Part shown: positions 1 to 44,293 of the stretch, piece after piece | Position numbering within the stretch: the first letter of the stretch is position 1 | Layout: every line of letters starts with the position of its first letter | Sequence record: MZ234049.1 | Reading direction: 5' to 3' (one strand) | Length of the DNA stretch: 44,293 nucleotides | From: Escherichia phage vB_EcoP-UTI89UKE2 | The notes under the pieces: generated by a model | Database searches by the model: none | What the model was told of the DNA's origin: nothing | Seen by the model: the letters and a program-made list of their open reading frames with translations, nothing else | Made by a program: the position numbers and the translations under genes

Positions 1-924
1 ATGACTACTGAAAACGTCCTCCTGTCTGTTCGTGAAGCTGCAACCGCTGAAATCAAGCAGCACTTAGACAATATCGGCACTTCTTACATCAAAGTTGGCG
101 CTTGTCTGAATGAATTACGCGGTGATTTCGAAGGTCAAAAAGACTTTTTAGCTTATGTAGAATCAGAGTTCGGCATCAAGAAAGCACAATGCTACAAGCT
201 GATGAGTGTAGCCCGTGTCTTTGAAGGGGATGAACGCTTTAAAGGTGTGGCTATGCGTGTAATGCTGGCGCTTGTTCCTTTCGCTGATGAAAATATAATC
301 ATGGAGAAGGCCGCAGAACTCGCCGCAGCTGGCAAGCTGGACACTAATGCCGTAAATGCCCTGATTGATCCTAAGAAAGAGACAAAGGCCGAGACGGTAC
401 AATCTAAGGCGGAGACAGTAAAACCGCAGGAGAACGCGACTGAGGCCGCAGAAACTATGCAAGGACATGCAACCTTTGAGGATTTCATCTTAGAGAAGGC
501 GAAAGAGGAGTTACAAAGTGTGCCGCCAGCAAGTGAGTCGGGTAACGACGAATCCGCACCGTGGGAAGATGAAAGCAAGCCGGAAGACACAAAGGCAGCG
601 CCGCTGGATAACACGGCTAATACTGAGAATGCCGCTATTGCTGGTCTGCTGGCACAAATTAAGGCACTGACTGAGCAATTACAGGCGGCTAATGACCGCA
701 TCGCCTCCTTAAGTAGCGCACGCGAAAGCAAGAAGGCAGCCGCACCTATGCTGCCGCAATTCAAATCTTCCTGCTTCTATGCTCGCTTAGGTTTAAGCGC
801 TGAGGAGGCAACGAAGAAAACAGCAGTTAACAAGGCACGCCGCGAACTGGTTAAGCTAGGCTACGGCGAAGGCCATGAAGCATGGCCCTTAATCTCTGAG
901 GCAGTAGAAGAATTAACTAAGTAA
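1..924 (+). CDS. hypothetical protein (307 aa) immediately upstream of the RNAP gene; structured N-terminal region followed by an Ala/Glu-rich low-complexity segment
   Basis: Long uninterrupted + strand ORF. ATG at position 1 is preceded across the window junction by AAGGTG (44282-44287), so the start is probably genuine in a circular record. No catalytic motifs recognised; same position as T7 gene 0.7 but no kinase motifs. Confidence 0.65.
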   Translation: MTTENVLLSVREAATAEIKQHLDNIGTSYIKVGACLNELRGDFEGQKDFLAYVESEFGIKKAQCYKLMSVARVFEGDERFKGVAMRVMLALVPFADENIIMEKAAELAAAGKLDTNAVNALIDPKKETKAETVQSKAETVKPQENATEAAETMQGHATFEDFILEKAKEELQSVPPASESGNDESAPWEDESKPEDTKAAPLDNTANTENAAIAGLLAQIKALTEQLQAANDRIASLSSARESKKAAAPMLPQFKSSCFYARLGLSAEEATKKTAVNKARRELVKLGYGEGHEAWPLISEAVEELTK

Positions 925-987: not shown

Positions 988-3615
988 ATGCAAGACCTAC
1001 ACGCTATTCAACTTCAACTTGAAGAAGAAATGTTTAACGGCGGTATCCGTCGCTTTGAAGCGGACCAACAACGCCAGATTGCATCCGGTAATGAATCAGA
1101 CACGGCATGGAATCGCCGCTTATTGTCCGAGTTAATCGCGCCAATGGCTGAAGGTATTCAGGCATACAAGGAAGAGTATGAAGGTAAAAGAGGCCGTGCA
1201 CCGCGTGCATTAGCTTTCATTAACTGCGTAGAAAACGAAGTGGCAGCATATATCACGATGAAAATCGTTATGGATATGCTGAACACGGATGTAACCTTGC
1301 AGGCTATAGCCATGAATGTAGCTGACCGCATTGAGGACCAAGTACGTTTTAGCAAGCTGGAAGGTCACGCCGCCAAATACTTTGAGAAAGTTAAGAAGTC
1401 ACTTAAGGCAAGTAAGACTAAATCATATCGCCATGCGCACAACGTAGCGGTCGTGGCTGAGAAGTCAGTAGCTGACCGTGACGCTGATTTCTCTCGCTGG
1501 GAGGCGTGGCCTAAAGATACCTTGCTACAAATTGGTATGACCTTGCTAGAAATACTGGAAAATAGTGTATTCTTCAATGGTCAGCCTGTCTTTCTTCGCA
1601 CCTTGCGCACTAATGGTGGCAAGCATGGCGTTTACTACTTACAGACTAGCGAACACGTGGGTGAATGGGTAACTGCATTTAAAGAGCACGTAGCTCAGCT
1701 GAGTCCAGCCTATGCGCCTTGCGTTATTCCTCCTCGTCCGTGGGTTTCTCCGTTTAATGGCGGCTTCCATACTGAGAAAGTAGCAAGCCGTATTCGTCTA
1801 GTAAAAGGCAATCGTGAGCACGTCCGCAAGCTGACCAAAAAGCAAATGCCAGCGGTTTACAAGGCTGTTAACGCTTTGCAGGCGACTAAGTGGCAGGTTA
1901 ATAAAGAGGTTTTGCAGGTAGTAGAGGACGTTATCCGTCTCGATCTTGGTTATGGTGTGCCTTCCTTTAAACCACTCATCGACCGTGAGAACAAGCCAGC
2001 TAATCCAGTGCCGTTAGAGTTCCAGCACCTGCGAGGCCGTGAATTGAAAGAGATGCTAACACCGGAGCAATGGCAGGCCTTCATCAACTGGAAGGGTGAA
2101 TGTACTAAGCTGTATACCGCTGAGACTAAGCGCGGCAGCAAGTCGGCGGCGACCGTCCGCATGGTAGGACAGGCCCGTAAATACAGCCAGTTTGACGCTA
2201 TTTATTTTGTATATGCACTGGATAGCCGTTCACGCGTTTATGCGCAATCTAGCACGCTCTCGCCGCAATCAAACGACTTAGGCAAGGCATTGCTCCGTTT
2301 TACCGAAGGGCAGCGTCTTGATAGCGCTGAGGCGCTTAAGTGGTTTTTGGTGAACGGGGCGAATAACTGGGGTTGGGATAAGAAAACTTTTGACGTGCGC
2401 ACCGCTAACGTGCTGGATAGTGAATTTCAAGACATGTGCCGCGACATTGCAGCGGATCCGCTGACCTTCACTCAATGGGTAAATGCCGACTCCCCTTACG
2501 GCTTCCTTGCATGGTGCTTTGAATATGCGCGTTATCTGGATGCACTGGATGAAGGCACGCAAGACCAATTCATGACGCACCTCCCAGTCCATCAAGATGG
2601 TAGTTGTTCTGGTATCCAGCACTACAGTGCTATGCTACGCGATGCAGTAGGTGCGAAAGCGGTAAACCTTAAGCCCTCTGACTCCCCTCAAGATATTTAT
2701 GGTGCCGTTGCGCAGGTAGTAATTCAGAAGAATTATGCATACATGAATGCAGAGGATGCGGAAACCTTCACTTCTGGCAGCGTGACTTTAACAGGTGCAG
2801 AACTTCGTAGCATGGCTAGTGCGTGGGATATGATAGGAATCACTCGCGGCCTGACCAAAAAGCCTGTAATGACACTACCTTATGGCAGCACACGTCTAAC
2901 CTGCCGTGAATCAGTGATTGATTATATCGTTGATTTGGAAGAAAAAGAGGCCCAACGGGCTATTGCGGAAGGGCGTACCGCCAATCCTGTACATCCTTTT
3001 GATAATGACCGCAAAGACAGCCTGACACCTAGCGCAGCTTATAACTATATGACAGCTTTAATCTGGCCTTCTATTTCGGAAGTGGTTAAAGCTCCTATAG
3101 TGGCAATGAAAATGATTCGTCAGCTTGCACGTTTCGCAGCTAAAAGAAACGAAGGCTTAGAATATCCCTTACCAACTGGCTTCATCTTGCAACAAAAGAT
3201 AATGGCTACCGATATGCTCCGCGTATCCACTTGCTTGATGGGTGAAATCAAGATGAGTCTCCAGATTGAAACAGATGTAGTTGATGAAACGGCAATGATG
3301 GGTGCGGCTGCTCCTAACTTCGTCCATGGTCACGATGCTAGCCACCTGATTCTGACTGTATGTGACCTAGTGGATAAAGGTATTACATCCATTGCAGTCA
3401 TCCATGATTCTTTCGGTACTCATGCAGGACGTACCGCAGACCTGCGGGATAGCTTAAGGGAAGAAATGGTTAAGATGTATCAAAACCATAATGCCCTGCA
3501 AAACCTGCTAGATGTGCACGAAGAGCGTTGGTTAGTAGACACCGGAATCCAAGTACCAGAGCAAGGAGAGTTTGACCTTAACGAAATCTTAGTTTCAGAC
3601 TATTGTTTCGCATAA
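988..3615 (+). CDS. single-subunit DNA-dependent RNA polymerase (T7/SP6 type; closest to SP6 RNAP by recollection)
   Basis: 875-aa ORF with RBS AGGAG at 972-976. Contains the family motifs [27 protein letters not shown] and [12 protein letters not shown], and a C-terminal DYCFA. Length and N-terminus [19 protein letters not shown] match SP6-type RNAP. Confidence 0.95.
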
Positions 3616-3622
3616 TATTAAT

Positions 3623-3652
3623 AGGCCATTCCTTAGGGAGTGGCCTTTTTCT
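3623..3652 (+). terminator. stem-loop plus T-run immediately after the RNAP gene
   Basis: GGCCATTCC-loop-GGAGTGGCC followed by TTTTTCTTT. Confidence 0.5.
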
Positions 3653-3676
3653 TTACCTACTACCTGTAACATTTCA

Positions 3677-3719
3677 TTAACATAAAAGTGTCTCACATGT
3701 GAGACTTATTTACCGGACA
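3677..3719 (+). promoter_or_regulatory. palindrome GTCTCACATGTGAGAC abutting a variant phage promoter (TATTTACCGGACACTATAGGATAG)
   Basis: 16-bp perfect palindrome at 3679-3694, directly followed by a sequence matching the phage promoter consensus except at 2-3 positions. Confidence 0.5.
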
Positions 3720-3769
3720 CTATAGGATAGCCGTCGGAGACGGGAAAGAAAGGGAAGATAAAGGATATA

Positions 3770-3868: not shown

Positions 3869-3914
3869 TTGTCTCACATGTGAGACTTCGTATTTACCGG
3901 ACAGTATAGATAAG
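3869..3914 (+). promoter_or_regulatory. second palindrome GTCTCACATGTGAGAC abutting a second variant promoter-like sequence (TATTTACCGGACAGTATAGATAAG)
   Basis: Palindrome at 3871-3886; the promoter-like sequence differs from consensus in the core (CAGTATAGA vs CACTATAGA), so activity is uncertain. Confidence 0.4.
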
Positions 3915-4072: not shown

Positions 4073-6061
4073 ATGGCTATTATTCAGAATGTACCGTGTC
4101 CTGCCTGTCAAAAGAATGGACATGATATTACTGGCAACCATCTTATGATATTTGAGGATGGCGCTGGTTACTGTAACCGTGGTCACTTCCATGATAACGG
4201 CAAGCCTTATTACCATAAGCCAGAGGGTGGCATCGAGATAACCGAATTACCTATTACTGGCAATATCAAATATACACCTTCTCAGTTTAAAGAGATGGAG
4301 AAGGAAGGGAAGATTAGCGACCCTAAGCTACGCGCCATCGCACTTGGTGGTATGCGTATGAAAGACCGTTGGGAGGTCATGAATGAGCAAGAAAGGGCAG
4401 AACAAGAAGCAGAGTGGAAACTTGATGTTGAATGGTTCCTCACGCTTAAGCGTAAGAATCTTGTTTCCCGACACATTCGCGGCGACATTTGCGCATTGTA
4501 CGATGTACGTGTCGGACACGATGAAGATGGTAGAGTCTCACGGCATTACTATCCACGCTTCGAGAAAGGTGAGCTAGTAGGCGCTAAGTGTCGCACATTA
4601 CCTAAAGACTTTAAGTTTGGTCATTTAGGTAAACTCTTTGGTATGCAAGATCTTTTCGGTATGAATACTTTGTCTCACGTGTTAGACAAGGGAAGACGAA
4701 AGGATTGCTTGCTTATTGTGGGCGGCGAACTGGATGCACTAGCAGCACAGCAAATGCTCCTTGATTCTGCCAAGGGTACTAAGTGGGAAGGCCAGCCTTA
4801 CCATGTATGGTCTGTCAATAAAGGTGAGTCTTGCCTTGAAGAGATAGTACAGAACCGTGAACACATCGCCCAATTTAAGAAGATTATATGGGGTTTTGAT
4901 GGAGATGAGGTAGGGCAGAAGCAGAATCAGCAAGCGGCTCGCCTGTTTCCTGGCAAATCCTATATCCTTGAATACCCTTCTGGTTGCAAAGATGCTAACA
5001 AGGCATTGATGGCTGGCAAGGCTAAAGAGTTTGTTGATGCTTGGTTTAATGCCAAGTCATCTGATGAAGTCTTTGGTAGCCAGATTAAATCTATCGCATC
5101 TCAAAGGGATAAGCTCAAGGCTGCACGTCCAGAGCAAGGGCTATCATGGCCTTGGCCTAAGCTGAACAAGGTAACGCTAGGTATTCGTAAGAACCAGCTT
5201 ATCATTGTAGGTGCAGGTTCTGGTGTAGGTAAGACTGAGTTCCTCCGCGAAGTGGTTAAACATCTCATTGAAGAACACGGTGAATCTGTAGGCATCATTT
5301 CTACAGAAGACCCAATGGTCAAGGTGTCCCGTGCTTTTATCGGCAAGTGGATTGATAAGCGTATTGAGTTACCGCCAACCAACGACCCGAAAGAAGACGG
5401 ATACCGTGAGGTGTTCGACTACACCGAGGAAGAAGCTAACGCTGCCATTGATTATGTAGCTGATACAGGAAAGCTATTTGTGGCTGACCTAGAAGGCGAT
5501 TATTCTATGGAGAAGGTAGAGCAAACTTGCCTAGAGTTTGAGGCTATGGGCATTTCTAATATCATCATTGATAACTTAACGGGGATTAAATTAGATGAGC
5601 GTGCTTTTGGTGGGAAGGTTGGTGCACTTGATGAATGCGTCAAACGAATTGGTACTATCAAAGACCGACATGCGGTTACGATTTTCCTTGTCTCTCACCT
5701 TACACGTCCTCCGGCAAACCGTACCCAACACGAAGAAGGTGGCGAAGTTATCCTTTCTGACTTCCGAGGCTCAGGCGCTATCGGATTCTGGGCATCTTAC
5801 GCCTTGGGGATTGAGCGTAATACAAGAGCTGAAACGCTTGATGAAAGGACTACCACGTACATCTCGTGTGTCAAAGACCGCGATCAAGGTATCTACACTG
5901 GAACCAAGGTCATGCTTAAAGGTGACATTCAGACCGGACGTTTGATGGAACCACAAGCCCGTACTAAGTCATTTGATACAGGTGAAGCAAGGCAGCAAGA
6001 GGTGCCTGATTTACCGGACACTATAGAAGAGACAAACTTTGAAGATGAACAGGAGTTTTAA
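4073..6061 (+). CDS. DNA primase/helicase (T7 gp4-like)
   Basis: N-terminal Cys4 zinc ribbon (CPACQKNGHD...YCNRGH), Walker A GAGSGVGKTEF, and a C-terminal acidic tail ending FEDEQEF as in T7 gp4. Confidence 0.93.
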   Translation: MAIIQNVPCPACQKNGHDITGNHLMIFEDGAGYCNRGHFHDNGKPYYHKPEGGIEITELPITGNIKYTPSQFKEMEKEGKISDPKLRAIALGGMRMKDRWEVMNEQERAEQEAEWKLDVEWFLTLKRKNLVSRHIRGDICALYDVRVGHDEDGRVSRHYYPRFEKGELVGAKCRTLPKDFKFGHLGKLFGMQDLFGMNTLSHVLDKGRRKDCLLIVGGELDALAAQQMLLDSAKGTKWEGQPYHVWSVNKGESCLEEIVQNREHIAQFKKIIWGFDGDEVGQKQNQQAARLFPGKSYILEYPSGCKDANKALMAGKAKEFVDAWFNAKSSDEVFGSQIKSIASQRDKLKAARPEQGLSWPWPKLNKVTLGIRKNQLIIVGAGSGVGKTEFLREVVKHLIEEHGESVGIISTEDPMVKVSRAFIGKWIDKRIELPPTNDPKEDGYREVFDYTEEEANAAIDYVADTGKLFVADLEGDYSMEKVEQTCLEFEAMGISNIIIDNLTGIKLDERAFGGKVGALDECVKRIGTIKDRHAVTIFLVSHLTRPPANRTQHEEGGEVILSDFRGSGAIGFWASYALGIERNTRAETLDERTTTYISCVKDRDQGIYTGTKVMLKGDIQTGRLMEPQARTKSFDTGEARQQEVPDLPDTIEETNFEDEQEF

Positions 6062-38366: not shown

Positions 38367-40802
38367 ATGATTCAAAGACTAGGTTCTTCATTAGTTAAAT
38401 TCAAGAGTAAAATAGCAGGTGCAATCTGGCGTAACTTGGATGACAAGCTCACCGAGGTTGTATCGCTTAAAGATTTTGGAGCCAAAGGTGATGGTAAGAC
38501 AAACGACCAAGATGCAGTAAATGCAGCGATGGCTTCAGGTAAGAGAATTGACGGTGCTGGTGCTACTTACAAAGTATCATCTTTACCTGATATGGAGCGA
38601 TTCTATAACACCCGCTTCGTATGGGAACGTTTAGCAGGTCAACCTCTTTACTATGTGAGTAAAGGTTTTATCAATGGTGAACTCTATAAAATCACGGACA
38701 ACCCTTATTACAATGCTTGGCCTCAAGACAAGGCGTTTGTATATGAGAATGTGATATATGCACCCTACATGGGTAGCGACCGTCATGGTGTTAGTCGTCT
38801 GCATGTATCATGGGTTAAGTCTGGTGACGATGGTCAAACATGGTCTACTCCAGAGTGGCTAACTGATCTGCATCCAGATTACCCTACAGTGAACTATCAT
38901 TGTATGAGTATGGGTGTATGTCGCAACCGTCTGTTTGCCATGATTGAAACACGTACTTTAGCCAAGAACGCACTAACCAATTGTGCATTGTGGGATCGCC
39001 CTATGTCTCGTAGTCTGCATCTTACTGGTGGTATCACTAAGGCTGCAAATCAGCGTTATGCAACAATCCATGTACCTGATCACGGATTATTCGTGGGCGA
39101 TTTTGTTAGCTTCTCTAATTCTGCGGTAACAGGTGTAACTGGTGATATGAAAGTTGCAACAGTTATAGATAAGGACAACTTCACGGTTCTTACAGCCAAT
39201 CAGCAGACCTCTGATTTGAACAATGCTGGAAAGAATTGGCACATGGGTACTTCCTTCCATAAGTCTCCATGGCGTAAGACAGATCTTGGCCTGATACCTC
39301 GTGTTACTGAAGTTCATAGCTTTGCTACTATTGATAACAATGGCTTTGTTATGGGTTATCACCAAGGCGACGTAGCTCCACGCGAAGTTGGTCTTTTCTA
39401 CTTCCCTGATGCTTTTAACAATCCATCTAATTATGTTCGTCGTCAGATACCATCTGAGTACGAACCGGGTGCTGCAGAGCCATGCATCAAGTACTATGAC
39501 GGTGTATTATACCTTATCACTCGTGGTACTCGTGGCGACCGACTAGGAAGCTCTTTGCATCGTAGTAGAGATATAGGTCAGACTTGGGAGTCACTGAGAT
39601 TTCCACATAATGTTCATCATACTACCTTACCTTTTGCTAAAGTAGGAGATGACCTTATTATGTTTGGTTCAGAACGTGCAGAAAATGAATGGGAAGCAGG
39701 TGCACCAGATGATCGTTACAAGGCATCTTATCCTCGTACCTTCTATGCACGATTGAATGTAAACAATTGGAATGCAGATGATATTGAATGGGTTAACATC
39801 ACAGACCAAATCTATCAAGGTGACATTGTGAACTCTAGTGTAGGTGTAGGTTCTGTTGTAGTTAAAGACAGCTACATTTACTATATCTTTGGTGGTGAAA
39901 ACCATTTCAACCCAATGACTTATGGTGACAACAAAGATAAAGACCCATTTAAAGGTAATGGACACCCTACTGATATATACTGCTATAAGATGCAGATTGC
40001 AAATGACAGTCGTGTATCTCGTAAGTTTACATATGGTGCAACTCCTGGTCAGGCTATACCTACTTTCATGGGTACTGATGGTATTCGCACTATTCCTGCT
40101 CCACTTCACTTATCAGGAGAGGTAGTTGCCGCAGATATGACTGTCGAACACCTTACCTTGAAGGCAAGTACAAGTGCTAATATTCGCTCAGAGATGCTGA
40201 TGGAGGGTGAATATGGGTTCATTGGTAAGACTATACCAACGGATAACCCAACCGCCCAACGTGTTATCATCTCTGGTGGAGAGGGTACAGCAGCAGATAC
40301 CGGTGCGCAAATTACCTTACACGGAGCAGGTTCTAGCACTTCTAGACGCGCAGTATATAATGCCAATGAGCACTTGTTCCAAAGTGGAGCTATCATGCCA
40401 TACAATGATAACGTGTATCCTGCTGGTGGCCCTCGTAATAGATTCACTACTATCCATCTTACAAGTGACCCTATTATTACGTCGGATGCCACTCATAAGT
40501 ATGGATCACAAGGTATTGATGAGAGTGTACTAAAGGCATGGGGTAAGGTTAGCTTCAAGCAGTACAAGTTGATTGGTGAGATGTCTCGTGGTGTGCACCA
40601 CACTCACTTTGGTGTATTGGCACAAGACATTGTAGCTGCTTTTGCATCCGAAGGGTTAGATGCAATCGACTTCGGCATTGTCTCCTTCGAAGAAGGTCAG
40701 TTTGGTGTTAGATATAGTGAAATCTTAATCTTGGAGGCTGCTTATACTCGCTATCGTTTAGACAAGTTAGAGGAGATGTATGCCACTAATAAAATCAGTT
40801 AA
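38367..40802 (+). CDS. tailspike endo-N-acetylneuraminidase (endosialidase) with C-terminal intramolecular chaperone domain
   Basis: 811 aa from ATG 38367 (RBS AAGGAGG). Sequence recognised from memory as K1-phage endosialidase, including the C-terminal block ending YATNKIS. Confidence 0.88.
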   Translation: MIQRLGSSLVKFKSKIAGAIWRNLDDKLTEVVSLKDFGAKGDGKTNDQDAVNAAMASGKRIDGAGATYKVSSLPDMERFYNTRFVWERLAGQPLYYVSKGFINGELYKITDNPYYNAWPQDKAFVYENVIYAPYMGSDRHGVSRLHVSWVKSGDDGQTWSTPEWLTDLHPDYPTVNYHCMSMGVCRNRLFAMIETRTLAKNALTNCALWDRPMSRSLHLTGGITKAANQRYATIHVPDHGLFVGDFVSFSNSAVTGVTGDMKVATVIDKDNFTVLTANQQTSDLNNAGKNWHMGTSFHKSPWRKTDLGLIPRVTEVHSFATIDNNGFVMGYHQGDVAPREVGLFYFPDAFNNPSNYVRRQIPSEYEPGAAEPCIKYYDGVLYLITRGTRGDRLGSSLHRSRDIGQTWESLRFPHNVHHTTLPFAKVGDDLIMFGSERAENEWEAGAPDDRYKASYPRTFYARLNVNNWNADDIEWVNITDQIYQGDIVNSSVGVGSVVVKDSYIYYIFGGENHFNPMTYGDNKDKDPFKGNGHPTDIYCYKMQIANDSRVSRKFTYGATPGQAIPTFMGTDGIRTIPAPLHLSGEVVAADMTVEHLTLKASTSANIRSEMLMEGEYGFIGKTIPTDNPTAQRVIISGGEGTAADTGAQITLHGAGSSTSRRAVYNANEHLFQSGAIMPYNDNVYPAGGPRNRFTTIHLTSDPIITSDATHKYGSQGIDESVLKAWGKVSFKQYKLIGEMSRGVHHTHFGVLAQDIVAAFASEGLDAIDFGIVSFEEGQFGVRYSEILILEAAYTRYRLDKLEEMYATNKIS

Positions 40803-40929
40803 GCAATCTGCTGTACGCCAGAACACAGAAGAACTTATTCAATCAGGACGTGACCCTAAGCAGGCATATGCCATTGCCAAGGATGTACAACGTCGTGACT
40901 TGAAGAAACCTTCTGCATCTTCTGCTTAA
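40780..40929 (+). CDS. small basic ORF (49 aa) overlapping the 3' end of the tailspike gene
   Basis: ATG at 40780 in the +1 frame after GGAG; TAA at 40927-40929. Confidence 0.25.
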   Translation: MPLIKSVKQSAVRQNTEELIQSGRDPKQAYAIAKDVQRRDLKKPSASSA

Positions 40930-40939
40930 GCAGGTTAAT

Positions 40940-41100
40940 ATCTTAGTGTACACAAGGGCAGACCTAGGTTTGCTCTTAGTGCCATCAAAGGAGGGTGTAG
41001 GTATGTTATCTTTGTTGTGTATACTCAGTGATGTCCTAGGTCGTAAGAGGTACATTCTTAGTGAAGACCAAATAAGGGACGAGAAGATACGGAGGTCGCT
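40940..41100. repeat. CTTAGT(G) repeat copies to the left of the GC-rich terminal segment
   Basis: CTTAGTG at about 40942, 40975 and 41057; the 17-mer AAGGGCAGACCTAGGTT (40954-40970) also occurs at 3854-3870. Confidence 0.5.
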
Positions 41101-41139
41101 CACAAAGTAACCAAAGTCAAAATTTTGATATAGGCGTGT

Positions 41140-41460
41140 GTGAGGTGTCTCGCCCTCGCCCTCGCCGGATTTCCCCCATATGGGGCCGCGCTGCGGTTGG
41201 CTTGGGAATTGGGCTGGGCTGGTCCGTCTTCGACGGGTGGCCTAGGGCTTGCCGAGGTCTGCTCTTAGTGGCTGCACAAGGAGAACGCCTAGGAAGCGCT
41301 AGGGCACGCCTTAGTATTGGACAAGGTGATTGCCTTAGTGCAATCGCTTAGGGCTTACACAGGGCGTTTTAGGGCCATTCCTGAGCGTTTGACAGGGTGT
41401 GAGGGCGTGGGCTATCTGTTCGTTTCGTTCACTACGCTTGCGCTCCGTTCACTCGCTCAC
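41140..41460. other. GC-rich non-coding segment, probable genome terminus / direct terminal repeat region
   Basis: No credible ORF; CGCCCT x3 and the palindrome CCCCATATGGGG (41174-41185), which resembles the CCCCCATAGGGGG element near the T7 left end; flanked by heptamer repeat arrays as the T7 terminal repeat is flanked by CCTAAAG arrays. Confidence 0.5.
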
Positions 41461-41465
41461 GTGTA

Positions 41466-41595
41466 CCTTAGGTTATTACTTGATGGATAGCTTAGGTTAA
41501 CCTTAGTGGAATGCCTTAGTTAAAGACTTAGTGCTTATCTTAGTAACAGCTTAGTAGTGTACCTTAGTTGGTCTTAGTGAATAGCCTTAGTGATT
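41466..41595. repeat. dense array of about 11 C/T-TTAG-G/T-T/G heptamer repeats at 10-13 bp spacing
   Basis: CCTTAGGTT, GCTTAGGTT, CCTTAGTGG, GCCTTAGTT, ACTTAGTGC, TCTTAGTAA, GCTTAGTAG, CCTTAGTTG, TCTTAGTGA, CCTTAGTGA, with more copies out to 41915. Confidence 0.75.
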
Positions 41596-41788
41596 GCACA
41601 TGCAAGCATGTAAGATGCCAATAGGTCGCGGTCGGTAGACCGCTAAAGAAAGAGAATAGTAATAAGATGCAGTAGGAGGAACACCAGAAACCTAGCCAAC
41701 CTAGCCTATCCTAGCTCTGTATCTATTGCTTTTCCTTAGTCTAACATGTGAGACAACCTAGATTTATCTTAGTGATGATAGCTTAGTG

Positions 41789-41817
41789 TTGACAAGGCCG
41801 TCTCAATGTAATACTAT
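41789..41817 (+). promoter_or_regulatory. candidate host sigma70 early promoter (-35 TTGACA, 17-bp spacer, -10 TACTAT)
   Basis: Hexamer match and spacing; upstream of the first early gene. Confidence 0.4.
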
Positions 41818-41884
41818 TCATCGCGTAGGCAGCACTGAGGTGCTTAGTAGCCAGCTAGTAAGGCATACGAAGAGACTAGCGCTT

Positions 41885-41915
41885 ACATTGCTCTTTAACA
41901 ATTTGCTTAGTGTAA
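41885..41915 (+). promoter_or_regulatory. early leader module 1 containing CTCTTTAACAATTTG
   Basis: First of five copies of a CTCTTTAACAAT-containing element before early genes; the same core is recalled from the T7 gene 0.3 leader (RNase III site R0.3). Confidence 0.45.
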
Positions 41916-41960
41916 CCTATGTATGCCGTGGTTAATTACTTATTGAATGAGGGATTAACT

Positions 41961-42188
41961 ATGAAAGTACAAGTAAAAGCGTACAACATGCCAGTTGATG
42001 AGATTCAGCACTTCCTCGATAAAGGTTATGACTTATGTAAGATGCGCACACCAGATAACTATGATTATTCGCCTAAGTATCTGCACTATATTGATCTTAA
42101 GATGGGTAATAAATTAGTTATAACTGGTACAGCATATAACCGCATTATCAAAACTCTTAAAGAGGGTGCTAATCATGACATTAAATAA
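41961..42188 (+). CDS. early protein (75 aa)
   Basis: RBS GAGGGA then ATG at 41961. Confidence 0.55.
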   Translation: MKVQVKAYNMPVDEIQHFLDKGYDLCKMRTPDNYDYSPKYLHYIDLKMGNKLVITGTAYNRIIKTLKEGANHDIK

Positions 42189-42354
42189 CCGTGAACTGTC
42201 CGTTCTCTTCACCCTGTTATGTTACATGATTCGTAACAACGAATTACTTACAGATGATGAGTTAGCCTTGTATCACCGCTTTCTTAACGAAGGTTGGACC
42301 GATACGGTTAATCAATACCGTAACATGATAGATGAGTTGAGGGAGGGTAAATAA
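42175..42354 (+). CDS. early protein (59 aa)
   Basis: RBS AGAGGG then ATG at 42175; overlaps the upstream gene by 14 nt. Confidence 0.5.
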   Translation: MTLNNRELSVLFTLLCYMIRNNELLTDDELALYHRFLNEGWTDTVNQYRNMIDELREGK

Positions 42355-42578
42355 TGTATCAACATGAGGTATTCTTTGAATCAGCTAGCGAAGCTATTCG
42401 CTTCCACGATGATATGCTACAAACTGGCGTAGGTGTTGATGTACATCACTTCCTACTAGATTACGACACTGAATATCACCGAGTTACCTTAGTATCTGAG
42501 TATGACAACCAAGTCATTACTGAGTATCTAGGTAGTGAAGATTATGATTACGATGAAGTAATCACGACAAATCTCTAA
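42354..42578 (+). CDS. early acidic protein (74 aa)
   Basis: TAATG overlap start; RBS GAGGGAGGG; strongly acidic C-terminal half. Confidence 0.55.
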   Translation: MYQHEVFFESASEAIRFHDDMLQTGVGVDVHHFLLDYDTEYHRVTLVSEYDNQVITEYLGSEDYDYDEVITTNL

Positions 42579-42586
42579 ATTAACTA

Positions 42587-42615
42587 TTGACAACCACGGC
42601 ATACAAGGTTACATT
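42587..42615 (+). promoter_or_regulatory. candidate sigma70 promoter (-35 TTGACA, 17-bp spacer, -10 TACATT)
   Basis: TTGACAAC start resembles the T7 A2/A3 -35 regions. Confidence 0.35.
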
Positions 42616-42644
42616 AAGCATCAAGACGGCGACGTCTTTAAACA

Positions 42645-42665
42645 TCACGCTCTTTAACAATAGAG
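42645..42665 (+). promoter_or_regulatory. early leader module 2 (CGCTCTTTAACAATAGAG)
   Basis: Repeat copy inside a roughly 280-bp non-coding stretch. Confidence 0.4.
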
Positions 42666-42802
42666 ATTAGGCCGGCAGTATCGGTGTGAGGGACAAGGAG
42701 GCTTTCCCACAATTAAACTGGTGGCAAAAGGATTGCCCAGCTTTATAGCCCAGTTATGGATAGCAATAGCGTAAGGATGGCAGCACACCCGCGAGTCTAA
42801 TC

Positions 42803-42850
42803 TCTAGCTCTTTAACAATCTGGCTAGTGCCTTGGTAGGCTAACTACTTA
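42803..42850 (+). promoter_or_regulatory. early leader module 3 (AGCTCTTTAACAATCTGG)
   Basis: About 40 nt upstream of the 70-aa gene. Confidence 0.45.
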
Positions 42851-42862
42851 CTAAGGTGAACT

Positions 42863-43075
42863 ATGAACTACTGCGACATCGCTCACGAATTACGCATGGA
42901 ACGTGAGAAACAAGAAAGGCGGATTATCAAGAAGATGGCTGTACTGCTTGCACACTATAAGGCAGACAAACAGCCAACACATGATGAGTTCGTGGACTTC
43001 TGTAACATGTATCTTAATGTGAGTAAGGCCACTGGTTACAGATGGCTTAAAGCACTGAATGATGGAGAATTGTAG
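42863..43075 (+). CDS. early protein (70 aa), possible helix-turn-helix
   Basis: RBS AAGGTG; C-terminal VSKATGYRWLKAL resembles an HTH recognition helix. Confidence 0.55.
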   Translation: MNYCDIAHELRMEREKQERRIIKKMAVLLAHYKADKQPTHDEFVDFCNMYLNVSKATGYRWLKALNDGEL

Positions 43076-43078
43076 CAA

Positions 43079-43165
43079 TAAGCCAGCTTAATAGCTGGCC
43101 TATCAAGGCACTAACCTAGCCCTTTAACAATCTGGTTTGTGTCTTGATAGGCTTACTAACAGAAA
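43079..43165 (+). promoter_or_regulatory. early leader module 4: hairpin GCCAGCTTAATAGCTGGC, then CCTATCAAGGCAC ... CCCTTTAACAATCTGG ... GTGTCTTGATAGG
   Basis: Long imperfect stem enclosing the conserved core; structure typical of RNase III processing sites. Confidence 0.5.
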
Positions 43166-43176
43166 GGTAAATTATC

Positions 43177-43344
43177 ATGGAAACTTTAATCGTTACCACT
43201 ACAATCAACGGCGTAAGTATCAGCATAACTAAGTATTCTTCCGAAGAGTATGAAGTGAATCACGGAATAGCTGCTATGGTGTATGACAACTTGGCAGATG
43301 CCGTGGAGCATTGGATACAGTCATGTAAGGCTGCAATTAAGTAG
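43177..43344 (+). CDS. early protein (55 aa)
   Basis: RBS AGAAAGG then ATG at 43177; TAG at 43342-43344. Under 60 aa, so absent from the ORF track. Confidence 0.45.
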   Translation: METLIVTTTINGVSISITKYSSEEYEVNHGIAAMVYDNLADAVEHWIQSCKAAIK

Positions 43345-43460
43345 GAAAGATAAGGCTGGCACTAGCCAGCCTATCAAGGCACAAGCCACGCTCTTTAACA
43401 ATATGGGTAGTCGCTTCTTAGTCTGGATAGGTTAAACCTAGGAGATTCTCTTGAGTCTCC
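43345..43460 (+). promoter_or_regulatory. early leader module 5: hairpin GGCTGGCACTAGCCAGCC, CGCTCTTTAACAATATGG, and hairpin GGAGATTCTCTTGAGTCTCC before ocr
   Basis: Same arrangement as module 4; a perfect TATAAT sits at 43461-43466. Confidence 0.5.
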
Positions 43461-43498
43461 TATAATGTAACCTAACTAACTAAATGAGGATTAATAAC

Positions 43499-43852
43499 AT
43501 GGCTATGTCTAATATGACTTACTCTCAGGTTTACAACACCGCTCATGCTGCATTAGTTGAACGTGTCTGGGATGATGCTATTGATTGTATCGATAACGCA
43601 CATGATGCAATCCATGAGGTGGCGGATAGTGCTGTACCAATCTATTATGCTGACATCTTCTCGGTGATGGCCAGTGAAGGAATCGACCACTTCTTCGAGG
43701 ATTCTGGCTTAATGCCAGACACTAAGGATGTGACTGTCGTACTACAAGCCCGTATTTATGAACAACTCACCATTGATTTATGGGAACGTGTTCAAGATAT
43801 GATTGATGAGTACATCGATTCCGCTGAGGATTCAGAAGAAGAGGAAGAATAA
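43499..43852 (+). CDS. ocr: Ocr-like DNA-mimic anti-restriction protein (T7 gene 0.3 homologue)
   Basis: MAMSNMTY ... [13 protein letters not shown] ... [11 protein letters not shown] ... [14 protein letters not shown] and an acidic C-terminus closely follow T7 Ocr as recalled. RBS GAGGA; the track start at 43484 is an extension. Confidence 0.85.
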
Positions 43853-43854
43853 GG

Positions 43855-43968
43855 ATGGAAAAGCAATATAACTTTATCTTTTCAGACGGTGTAACCCTGA
43901 AGTGTTCCCTACGATTCGCTCAGATTCGTGAGGAAGTGCTAGGTACTACATACAAACTATTTAGCTGA
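43855..43968 (+). CDS. small early ORF (37 aa)
   Basis: ATG 3 nt after the ocr stop; TGA at 43966-43968. Confidence 0.35.
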   Translation: MEKQYNFIFSDGVTLKCSLRFAQIREEVLGTTYKLFS

Positions 43969-43983
43969 CACTATAAGAGAAGG
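43962..43983 (+). promoter_or_regulatory. degenerate phage promoter-like sequence (TAGCTGACACTATAAGAGAAGG)
   Basis: Core CACTATA retained but downstream AGAGAAG instead of GAAG; may be the weak first phage promoter. Confidence 0.3.
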
Positions 43984-44044
43984 CTTAACAAGGCGTTGCT
44001 ACGGTAGCGCCTGATTAAACTTTCACTTACTAGGAGTTGAGATT

Positions 44045-44230
44045 ATGAAAACCTTGATTGGATGCTTCTTGTTGGCTTCTCTTGCTCTGGCATTTACCGC
44101 TAAAGCTGGTTATGACGCTTATAAAGTAGAACAAGCCCAGCAAGACTGGGCCAAAAAGTTCAACTTGTGTAGCAAGAGCAACACCTACGAGTATTGCAAC
44201 AAAACACTAAGACACTTATGGAAAGAGTAA
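44045..44230 (+). CDS. small secreted protein (61 aa) with N-terminal signal peptide
   Basis: RBS AGGAG; MKTLIGCFLLASLALAFTAKA is a signal-peptide-like N-terminus with AKA cleavage motif; mature part has two Cys. Confidence 0.55.
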   Translation: MKTLIGCFLLASLALAFTAKAGYDAYKVEQAQQDWAKKFNLCSKSNTYEYCNKTLRHLWKE

Positions 44231-44264
44231 CTAGCCTATAGCCTACCTGAGTGGGCTATGTGAT

Positions 44265-44287
44265 ATTTACTTACACTATATAAGGTG
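44265..44287 (+). promoter_or_regulatory. degenerate promoter-like sequence (ATTTACTTACACTATATAAGGTG) at the window end, upstream of the ORF starting at position 1
   Basis: Partial match to the phage promoter consensus; its 3' end provides the AAGGTG RBS for the position-1 ATG if the record is circular. Confidence 0.3.
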
Positions 44288-44293
44288 ATTACT

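Follow-up and report, generated by a model that had tools for sequence, protein, structure and literature searches.

The stretch at positions 41,961 to 43,968 of the Escherichia phage vB_EcoP-UTI89UKE2 sequence (MZ234049.1; 44,293 nt, hereafter the window) corresponds to the block of early genes in a K1E/SP6-like Vectrevirus, an E. coli phage deposited as a permuted record, and the same gene order is found in K1E, K1-5, and SP6. The block contains repeated boxA elements of the type found in E. coli rRNA (rrn) operons, together with complementary strands, supported by covariation, that lie on either side of translation units. We consider it probable that these features belong to a single arrangement, in which an early operon combines boxA antitermination with enclosing stems, exchanges its accessory genes as cassettes, and encodes early effectors.

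All seven ORFs that the earlier note had listed (proteins of 75, 59, 74, 70, 55, and 37 aa, here A to F, together with Ocr) were confirmed as real genes based on Shine-Dalgarno sequences, PHROG matches, and purifying selection (Table 1). As had been proposed, each has its own ribosome-binding site, with a Shine-Dalgarno-like purine run 4–9 nt 5′ of the ATG. Proteins A, B, C, D, and F matched PHROG families with E values of 3e-29 to 1e-53; the match of protein E was weak. The dN/dS ratios were 0.10–0.31 for gene C and 0.01–0.14 for gene B, excepting one comparison with the near-identical fTuEco01 copy of B, which gave 1.73 from 4 substitutions. Third-position changes were in excess, with pN/pS of ~0.35, both for D aligned to a 50%-identical Klebsiella phage copy and for E aligned to a Morganella phage copy.

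Table 1. Features of the UTI89UKE2 early region, listed from the upstream candidate promoter across the record junction
Feature	Position	Strand	Basis and remarks
Candidate sigma-70 early promoter, TTGACA-17-TACTAT	41789..41817	+	Consensus scan, 10/12 matches; ~70 nt 5′ of boxA1; putative function
boxA1, GCTCTTTAACAA	41890..41901	+	Exact E. coli rrnB leader boxA; extended match TGCTCTTTAACAATTT 16/16
Stem 1, 5′ strand	41904..41933	+	Pairs with 42592-42620, encloses A-B-C; −48.1 kcal/mol
Gene A, 75 aa, accessory	41961..42188	+	phrog_19860 4e-49; dN/dS 0.06
Gene B, 59 aa (K1-5 gp1 / SP6 gp3)	42175..42354	+	phrog_9275 2e-40; conserved across SP6-like phages
Gene C, 74 aa, acidic (K1-5/K1E gp2)	42354..42578	+	Ferredoxin-like fold (model); invariant acidic-aromatic C-terminal segment
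Second promoter-like site, TTGACA-17-TACATT	42587..42615	+	Consensus scan; embedded in stem 1 3′ strand
Stem 1, 3′ strand	42592..42620	+	Repeats I14, I15; pairs with 41904-41933
boxA2	42649..42660	+	Motif match
ORF-less 146-nt unit	42662..42805	+	Closed by stem 42662-42673 with 42793-42805, −27.9 kcal/mol
boxA3	42807..42818	+	Motif match
Stem 3, 5′ strand	42822..42841	+	Pairs with 43097-43116, encloses D; −37.1 to −41.0 kcal/mol
Gene D, 70 aa (K1E gp2.5), accessory cassette	42863..43075	+	Long helix and C-terminal helix-turn-helix (model)
Stem 3, 3′ strand	43097..43116	+	Repeat I2
boxA4, GCCCTTTAACAA, one mismatch	43119..43130	+	Motif match
Stem 4, 5′ strand	43134..43153	+	Pairs with 43368-43387, encloses E; bracketing −38.7 kcal/mol
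Gene E, 55 aa, rare accessory cassette	43177..43344	+	Weak PHROG match 5.6e-4; pN/pS 0.36
Stem 4, 3′ strand	43368..43387	+	Repeat I1
boxA5	43390..43401	+	Motif match
Local hairpin 5′ of ocr	43439..43462	+	Fold z = −4.3 (43420-43498)
ocr, DNA-mimic anti-restriction protein, 117 aa	43499..43852	+	PF08684 1.1e-41
Gene F, 37 aa (K1-5/K1E gp4), conserved	43855..43968	+	phrog_11746 5e-30; dN/dS 0.02-0.07
Long irregular local hairpin, T7-type RNase III-like candidate	43971..44033	+	Fold z = −5.6 (43969-44044)
Gene G, 61 aa (K1-5 gp5), variable slot	44045..44230	+	phrog_20059; candidate small secreted/membrane protein
gp6-like 307-aa early protein (K1-5 gp6 / SP6 gp7)	1..924	+	phrog_4571 4e-130
GC-rich hairpin and T-run	3623..3654	+	Directly 3′ of RNAP gene

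Gene A was found in 13 Escherichia phage records and in Proteus phage PM16 (40% identity), and gene B in 101 phage records with Escherichia, Salmonella, Klebsiella, Citrobacter, and Raoultella hosts. For B, an exhaustive HMMER search of 1.84 billion proteins returned only 6 clusters at 50% identity, two of which are repeat proteins without informative Pfam content. An identical E protein is encoded in 8 Escherichia phage records, with the protein split into two pieces in KY435490, and the copy in Morganella phage phiA020 (66% identity) likewise lies immediately 5′ of ocr. Gene F, which has 79% identity in SP6, is translationally coupled to ocr, and B and C are likewise coupled to each other in translation. 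The ORF calls for A and E improve on the GenBank annotation, from which E is missing, and the analysis amends the public annotation of the genome.

What the earlier note had called a processing module consists mainly of an rrn-type boxA, a candidate antiterminator, with strands of long-range stems on either side; these stems enclose whole translation units. The 12-nt boxA consensus GCUCUUUAACAA is matched exactly at four sites and with one mismatch at a fifth; all five lie on the + strand and in the early region, compared with 0.43 matches expected for the whole window. The repetition of the motif is significant. A separate module exists for D and for E only; A, B, and C lie together in one unit, and F is coupled to ocr. 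The exact 13-mer is present in the rrnB leader of strain MG1655, between the promoter region and 16S. Across 13 SP6-like phages, the 12-mer is exact in 39 of 42 copies and the flanking arms are variable. The number of copies per phage is five in UTI89UKE2 and three each in SP6, K1-5, and K1E; T7 has one exact boxA, 3′ of promoter A3, and Proteus phage PM16 also has one exact copy.

In rrn and lambda antitermination, boxA recruits NusB/E, and in some contexts it can promote Rho termination (PMC12360218). Because mutations in the T7 boxA are reported to make Gp2 dispensable (PMC3709561), the T7 element appears to be functional. The five rrn-type boxA elements of UTI89UKE2 would recruit NusB/NusE(S10) and other Nus factors, rendering the host RNAP fast and Rho-resistant. 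By analogy, the N-dependent lambda nut site (boxA and boxB) also places a boxA RNA that recruits NusB/NusE in a phage early transcript; in contrast to nut, the UTI89UKE2 boxA has the rrn consensus, and the small GC hairpins 5′ of boxA4 and boxA5 resemble boxB in position only. Since no N-like protein was identified in this analysis, a host-only rrn-type complex is the more likely mode. Our literature search, which had the 2004 SP6/K1-5 genome papers outside its scope, found nothing about boxA or about RNase III in phages of the SP6-like or K1 type; parts of the architecture may already be described in those papers.

Host RNAP would transcribe the early operon starting at the candidate sigma-70 promoter near 41789, pass the record junction, gp6, and the phage RNAP gene, and stop at the terminator near 3623-3654; by analogy with T7 TE, this hairpin is likely the end of the operon. 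Of the two promoter-like sites, that at 41789 precedes boxA1 and that at 42587 precedes boxA2; both come from a weak consensus scan that returned 8 sites vs 6.8 in shuffled sequence. Both hexamers of the 42587 site are retained in Klebsiella phages despite differing stem sequence, and the 41789 site with boxA1 corresponds in position to T7 A3-boxA. The T7 early region comprises promoters A1–A3, RNase III sites R0.3–R1.3, and genes 0.3–1. Like the proposed UTI89UKE2 operon, the T7 class I region is a host-RNAP operon with an ocr-type gene and small accessory genes first and the phage RNAP gene and a terminator last, and it has the exact GCTCTTTAACAA boxA 3′ of the early promoters; unlike UTI89UKE2, with five, it has one boxA. 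ARAGORN found no tRNA, and the only matches in an Rfam search of 40800-44293 (E up to 1) were two to miRNA models, attributed to chance.

The 5′ strand of a 19–30-bp long-range stem starts within 2–3 nt of boxA, and its 3′ strand lies just past the stop codon of the enclosed unit, with the stems positioned outside the Shine-Dalgarno-to-stop span in every unit. Enclosed in this way are A-B-C, D, E, and the 146-nt unit without an ORF, four units in all; when we looked for a distant complement to the strand that follows boxA5, in the Ocr-F unit, only noise was obtained. In 13 SP6-like phages, each of the 29 inter-boxA units has a bracketing pairing of −37 to −53 kcal/mol. The stems are present in all 13 of the phages examined, and covariation was computed for two stem families. 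For the 29 pairs of stem 1, pairing amounts to 96.6% over 10 distinct phage sequences, and 9 pairs show compensatory changes, a result that 0 of 500 shuffles reached; when one strand was slid by 1–3 columns, pairing occurred in 24–39% of cells. The cassette stem family (19 real pairs and one artificial linker pair) has all pairs formed in 6 sequences, 4 with compensatory changes. Read on the sense strand, the non-Watson-Crick cells of stem 1 are ~14 G·U vs 4 A·C, and those of the cassette family are 9 G·U vs 0 A·C.

The enclosing duplexes are likely RNase III processing and mRNA-stabilising sites; their 19–30 bp provide the roughly two helical turns of dsRNA expected of an RNase III substrate. 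A literature search found no transcript end-mapping for Vectrevirus. The arm at 43097-43116 can pair in two ways, with a bracketing energy of −37.1 vs −33.2 kcal/mol for a local hairpin around boxA4, in which its partner is the 5′ strand of stem 4. Taken whole, the intergenic region of 284 nt folds no more stably than shuffled sequence does (z = −0.3).

RNase III cuts T7 early mRNA between genes, and the T7 processing sites are local hairpins. The earlier note had given most of the genes a processing module of their own; if each module were a local hairpin of the T7 type, the 12-mer would simply be part of the cleavage site. Three regions of the block do fold locally with significant stability (43076-43176, with z = −4.9; 43420-43498; and 43969-44044). 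However, local pairing around boxA, computed with 32-nt flanks, is mostly −4 to −19 kcal/mol (four modules reach ~−33), whereas shuffled arms average −12.4; pairing is thus at background for four of the five boxA copies in the window and for most copies in the relatives. The single strong hairpin, at 43076-43176, has boxA4 in its loop, not its stem, and the 12-mer is the boxA of rrn and of T7, where it is separate from the RNase III sites. A local hairpin at every boxA was rejected on these energies, and we give little credence to the modules being local RNase III sites of the T7 kind. The conserved duplexes of UTI89UKE2 differ from those sites in being long-range and in enclosing whole translation units.

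The proposed organisation of the transcript resembles that of an rRNA operon. E. coli rrn operons have leader and spacer boxA elements, and RNase III stems enclose their 16S and 23S sequences. In both systems the identical boxA recurs before successive units, and shortly after it a long-range stem opens with its 5′ strand, the complementary strand being located past the enclosed unit; the phage units differ in being mRNAs for proteins of 55–75 aa and one 146-nt unit without an ORF, rather than rRNAs. Only 8 Vectrevirus records carry the 146-nt unit, which has no credible match in Rfam. Its capture from host DNA was rejected, as there was no match in 5,426 E. coli genomes.

Gene presence varies among the relatives, and the presence/absence junctions fall at boxA. 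Wide conservation is seen for B, C, Ocr, F, and gp6, and A, D, E, and G are swappable; among near-identical phages, A, D, E, and the 146-nt unit are each present or absent with junctions exactly at boxA. Some modules are chimeric, such as K1E 1663, in which the upstream arm comes from one module and the downstream arm from another. Because boxA is an invariant direct repeat, units could be gained and lost by recombination within it, which would yield a conserved set (B, C, Ocr, F, and gp6) and single-gene cassettes (A, D, E, and G).

The exact junctions and the chimeric modules would also be expected if the boxA direct repeats and flanking inverted repeats were DNA-level cassette features of the MITE or integron type, devoid of any RNA role. 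Against this, the stems show a G·U bias on the sense strand, which is expected for RNA and not for DNA pairing, the repeat is a known RNA-protein recognition site, and all copies lie on the transcribed strand and in the early operon only. We regard a purely DNA-level origin as improbable. DNA-cassette and RNA roles are not mutually exclusive.

Turning from the boxA and stem arrangement to the proteins, Ocr was confirmed at its previously assigned position, matching profile positions 1–100 of 101 in PF08684 (141.8 bits; cutoff 25) and T7 gp0.3 with 65% identity over 111 aa (69% over 100 aa in another comparison). Based on this similarity, it would block type I restriction. The other ORFs are known, uncharacterised early ORFs of K1E/K1-5/SP6-type phages; in those phages, Ocr is gp3, and the published early ORFs are all hypothetical except Ocr. 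UTI89UKE2 differs in adding A, E, and the 146-nt unit and in lacking K1E gp1.5, gp2.8, and gp5. Apart from Ocr, proteins A to F had no match to a characterised family in Pfam, NCBIfam, PHROGs, or PDB sequences.

Protein C is strongly acidic, as had been noted (pI 4.09; 17 D+E vs 2 K+R). No similarity to DNA mimics of the Ocr/ArdA type was found in sequence or fold: there was no Pfam or PDB sequence match, and the structural model is a compact beta-alpha-beta-beta-alpha-beta domain, ferredoxin-like, with nearest folds in CutA/PII and uS10-like proteins. Based on the model and its invariant acidic-aromatic tail, EDYDYDEV, C is most likely a protein-binding inhibitor; it may also be a DNA mimic through some other fold. 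For D, a helix-turn-helix-like C-terminus had been suggested. This is plausible given the AlphaFold model, which predicts helices at residues 40–50 and 55–66, but the match to HTH_23 (residues 51–68; E 0.0094) scored 16.2 bits, below the cutoff of 24.6. Judging from the model, D is probably a small DNA-binding helix-turn-helix protein. PDB sequence searches gave no credible match for C or D; a match of D to 9ncf was spurious, caused by a repeated ‘ATGYQW’ motif in Ig-like repeats.

From sequence and a hydropathy calculation, the N-terminus of G consists of MK, a hydrophobic core LIGCFLLASLALAFT (KD(15) 2.34), and AKA|G, which could be an AXA cleavage motif; it is a possible Sec-type signal peptide or membrane anchor. 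In other phages, the slot of G holds non-homologous small membrane proteins, and G and these counterparts would act at the envelope. The 307-aa gp6-like ORF had no kinase or other match in Pfam, NCBIfam, or PDB sequences. Among the best 120 of its 338 homologues there was no Pfam domain, and the sole functional name was one ‘endolysin’ label, the rest being hypothetical.

The earlier note had also reported no homologue of T7 gp0.7 or gp2, and at the sequence level this was borne out. We searched with T7 gp0.7, gp2, gp0.4, gp0.5, and gp0.6A using TBLASTN and using phmmer against all stop-to-stop ORFs of at least 30 aa, and nothing credible was found in the window: the best TBLASTN E values were 0.94 (gp0.7) and 0.54 (gp2), phmmer returned nothing for these two, and the best E value overall, 0.009 for gp0.6A, fell in a distant part of the genome. 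UTI89UKE2 thus also differs from T7 in having no sequence homologues of 0.4, 0.5, 0.6, 0.7, and 2.

Counter-defence and host-takeover genes are usually found in such a setting, an early operon with swappable cassettes beside a counter-defence gene. The proposal that the six small proteins are anti-defence or host-takeover factors is a reasonable guess in this context: they lie in an early operon beside ocr, a proven counter-defence gene, and several are swappable, but none matches a characterised family. Because of this lack of matches beyond Ocr, the label is one of context only. The proteins could instead be general takeover factors that target host division, cytoskeleton, transcription, or nucleoid, as T7 gp0.4, 0.6, and 0.7 do, rather than anti-defence proteins. 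The conservation of B, C, F, and gp6 in SP6-like phages that infect several genera of hosts is consistent with conserved host targets; F, coupled to ocr, occupies the place of T7 0.4; and the phage has neither gp0.7 nor gp2, and therefore other proteins must fill those roles. However, the patchy and swappable A, D, E, and G fit strain-specific defence better than essential host targets, and besides Ocr there is no sequence similarity to T7 class I proteins. On balance we lean away from general takeover as the role of these proteins, while holding it a real possibility. That alternative concerns protein roles only and is compatible with the regulatory explanation.

K1E/K1-5/SP6-type phages are in therapeutic use against K1 E. 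coli. Because their early ORFs are already known, flagging them as candidates adds little by itself; the new value lies in a regulatory hypothesis that can be tested by mutation, namely multiple rrn-type boxA elements and covarying stems around gene units, which also accounts for the exchange of early accessory genes between phages. More tentatively, and as less likely than not, we suggest that SP6-like phages package early accessory genes as rRNA-like units, each with an rrn boxA and a long-range RNase III stem enclosing one translation unit, and that the 146-nt unit gives a processed small RNA of the phage. If this were true, a single module would serve in antitermination, in processing and stabilisation, and as a portable joint at which recombination could swap counter-defence genes. 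The conserved B, C, F, and gp6 are candidates for the takeover of conserved host functions in phages without gp0.7 and gp2, and for the swappable A, D, E, and G the candidate role is strain-specific counter-defence, a division that gives a rational order for experiments.

The early region runs from ~41789 to 44293 and resumes at window position 1, as the record is permuted; gp6, the product of the 307-aa ORF, is encoded in its downstream part. Window 41100-44293 aligns with 100% identity to phage vB_EcoP-UTI89UKE3 (MZ234050; window coordinate = record coordinate - 1), which is classified as Autographiviridae, Molineuxvirinae, Vectrevirus. Gene order matches that of K1E (gp1-gp7), K1-5 and SP6, and the early genes are already published as hypothetical ORFs of these phages. 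The terminator-like hairpin 3' of the RNA polymerase gene is likely the end of early transcription. Downstream of it, a phage-promoter-like sequence, ATTTACCGGACA(C/G)TATAG, occurs in three copies (3708-3725, 3892-3909, 6009-6026). The heptamer CTTAGTG has 12 + strand copies in the 1-kb leader/genome-end region 40942-41906, of 18 on the + strand genome-wide. The GC-rich stretch 41136-41500 is annotated with several "hypothetical" CDSs that probably do not code for protein and belong to the terminal repeat or leader.

Coordinates of early-region features (in the window, except L-numbers, which are records of relatives, and MZ234050 CDSs as annotated)
Feature	Position	Remark
Gene A	41961-42188	Shine-Dalgarno-like sequence upstream
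Gene B	42175-42354	Shine-Dalgarno-like sequence upstream
Gene C	42354-42578	Shine-Dalgarno-like sequence upstream
Gene D	42863-43075	Shine-Dalgarno-like sequence upstream
Gene E	43177-43344	Shine-Dalgarno-like sequence upstream
Ocr	43499-43852	Shine-Dalgarno-like sequence upstream
Gene F	43855-43968	Shine-Dalgarno-like sequence upstream
F-gp6 slot proteins	window 44045-44230; L002 2865-3092; L005 2181-2372; L008 2889-3014	KD(15) 1.86-2.99
307-aa ORF (gp6-like)	1-924	downstream part of early region, across record junction
Phage RNA polymerase gene	988-3615	after 307-aa ORF
Terminator-like hairpin + T-run	3623-3654	immediately 3' of RNA polymerase gene
Stem round A-B-C (stem 1)	41904-41933 with 42592-42620	
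Stem round 146-nt ORF-less unit	42662-42673 with 42793-42805	
Stem round D	42822-42841 with 43097-43116	
Stem round E	43134-43153 with 43368-43387	
Annotated CDSs of MZ234050 in intergenic modules	42654-42788 (-), 43137-43232, 43283-43435	implausible

The seven ORFs called in the earlier note (A-F and Ocr) are real genes, based on Shine-Dalgarno-like sequences 4-9 nt 5' of each ATG, database matches and substitution patterns. All ORFs matched PHROG families without an assigned function, the match of E being weak, and the DNA mimic Ocr was confirmed by Pfam PF08684 (1.1e-41). Against orthologues from nine relatives, dN/dS was 0.06 for A, 0.01-0.14 for B (one near-identical comparison excepted), 0.10-0.31 for C and 0.02-0.07 for F. 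D and E show next to no variation within Vectrevirus; compared with copies from a Klebsiella phage (D, 50% identical) and a Morganella phage (E, 66% identical), pN/pS was ~0.35 in each case, with a third-position excess. The starts proposed earlier for A and E are preferable to those of MZ234050, whose annotation looks wrong across this region: A is annotated at 41919-42188, its start moved out to an ATG inside an RNA stem, and the conserved 55-aa gene E is left out, with three short CDSs in intergenic modules in its place.

The "processing modules" assigned to these genes in the earlier note did not stand as described; based on sequence, they are reinterpreted as a putative combination of an rrn-like boxA and a long-range stem. 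The early region has five copies of the motif CTCTTTAACAAT (boxA1-boxA5, at 41891, 42650, 42808, 43120 with one mismatch, and 43391); elsewhere in the window there is a single one-mismatch match, with 0.43 expected overall. Because the E. coli MG1655 rrnB leader carries an identical element, cacTGCTCTTTAACAATTTatc, between the promoter region and 16S (13-mer exact; 16/16 against copy 1), the repeated motif is, by sequence identity, the rrn boxA. It is exact in 39 of 42 copies from 13 SP6-like phages despite differing flanks, with three copies each in SP6, K1-5 and K1E and five in the present phage and ULINTec4. T7 has one exact boxA (nt 813, downstream of promoter A3 and upstream of gene 0.3), which is functional, since its mutations are reported to make Gp2 dispensable (PMC3709561). 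Proteus phage PM16 (Slopekvirinae; L018 3433) has a single exact rrn-type boxA 5' of gene 3, so at least three Autographiviridae subfamilies (Studiervirinae/T7, Molineuxvirinae and Slopekvirinae) have rrn boxA in their early regions.

Local folding around boxA was significant for copy 4 only (z = -4.9, boxA in the loop). When boxA flanks were scored all-against-all, the stretch just 3' of each boxA paired with the stretch just 5' of the next. A bracketing duplex was found in 29/29 inter-boxA units of 13 phages (-37 to -53 kcal/mol, wider windows); with 32-nt flanks, shuffled arms gave a mean of -12.4 and a minimum of -24.4 kcal/mol, and local pairing mostly -4 to -19 kcal/mol. All stem strands lie outside the Shine-Dalgarno-to-stop span of their units. 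When 10 distinct phage sequences were aligned, stem 1 was 96.6% paired, compared with 24-39% of cells in slid controls, and compensatory double changes occurred in 9 of 29 pairs, a result reached by 0/500 shuffles. The stems around single-gene cassettes such as D and E (six sequences) were all paired, with four compensatory pairs. Most of the non-Watson-Crick positions read G·U on the sense strand, an argument for pairing in RNA rather than in DNA. Beyond boxA5 there are only local hairpins (43439-43462, 43971-44033 with z = -5.6, 44237-44260, 925-963).

In rrn operons, the 5' strand of a stem comes after boxA and pairs with a strand on the far side of the enclosed unit; RNase III cuts the 16S and 23S stems. 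The layout in the phage is the same as in these operons, from which we infer that the long-range duplexes are putative RNase III processing and stabilising sites; boxA would thereby be presented anew ahead of each enclosed unit. Promoter-like hexamers (TTGACA-17-TACATT) at 42587-42615 lie inside the stem 1 3' strand. They are kept in Klebsiella phages with a different stem sequence, so this stretch may double as promoter in DNA and stem strand in RNA.

Ten early regions were mapped, those of T7 and nine SP6-like phages. Nearly all of the SP6-like phages have B, C, Ocr, F and gp6; SP6 gp4 and a 69-aa ORF of ULINTec4 look, by eye, like divergent C homologues. A, D, E and G are patchily distributed, and junctions of gene presence and absence coincide with boxA. 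B, restricted to the SP6-like lineage, was found in 101 phage records from five host genera, A in 13 Escherichia phage records and in two entries for a single Proteus phage, D in 16 records plus five from Klebsiella, and E in eight records plus one from Morganella. At the D/E position, K1-5 has an unannotated 36-aa ORF (L004 1314-1424) with an RBS in a boxA/stem-bracketed cassette. The Morganella copy of E, unannotated in phage phiA020 (Studiervirinae; L014 ~2001-2165; 66% identity), lies immediately 5' of ocr, so the E-ocr adjacency is common to two subfamilies; a TTGACA promoter-like site lies upstream, and no boxA was found within the 4-kb stretch examined.

The 146-nt unit between boxA2 and boxA3 (42662-42805) lacks a canonical ORF and shares the architecture of the gene cassettes, with a 12-bp closing stem. 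It was found in eight Vectrevirus records only, with no match in E. coli genomes and no credible Rfam match (fold z = -1.9); most relatives have a single chimeric module in its place. A processed small RNA of the phage is one possible identity, a dead cassette another.

In every case, the slot separating F from gp6 is occupied by a small protein that has one hydrophobic segment. Its occupants (G in the present phage, K1E gp5, SP6 gp6 and a 41-aa ULINTec protein) are non-homologous yet each strongly hydrophobic in that segment, which points to a function directed at the envelope and replaced repeatedly. Searches of the whole window found no credible sequence homologue of T7 gp0.7 or gp2, in agreement with the earlier note, nor of gp0.4, gp0.5 or gp0.6A. 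gp6 had no match in Pfam, NCBIfam or PDB, and the homologues among the matches listed carried no functional information. As gp6 and the small proteins lack informative matches, functions other than that of Ocr are drawn from context, on which anti-defence or host-takeover roles are plausible.

In T7, one boxA is known, and so is RNase III processing. The present phage has multiple copies of boxA with covarying, unit-enclosing stems that serve as cassette joints. We found no description of this variant in the literature searched, which excluded the 2004 genome papers, and we claim novelty cautiously.
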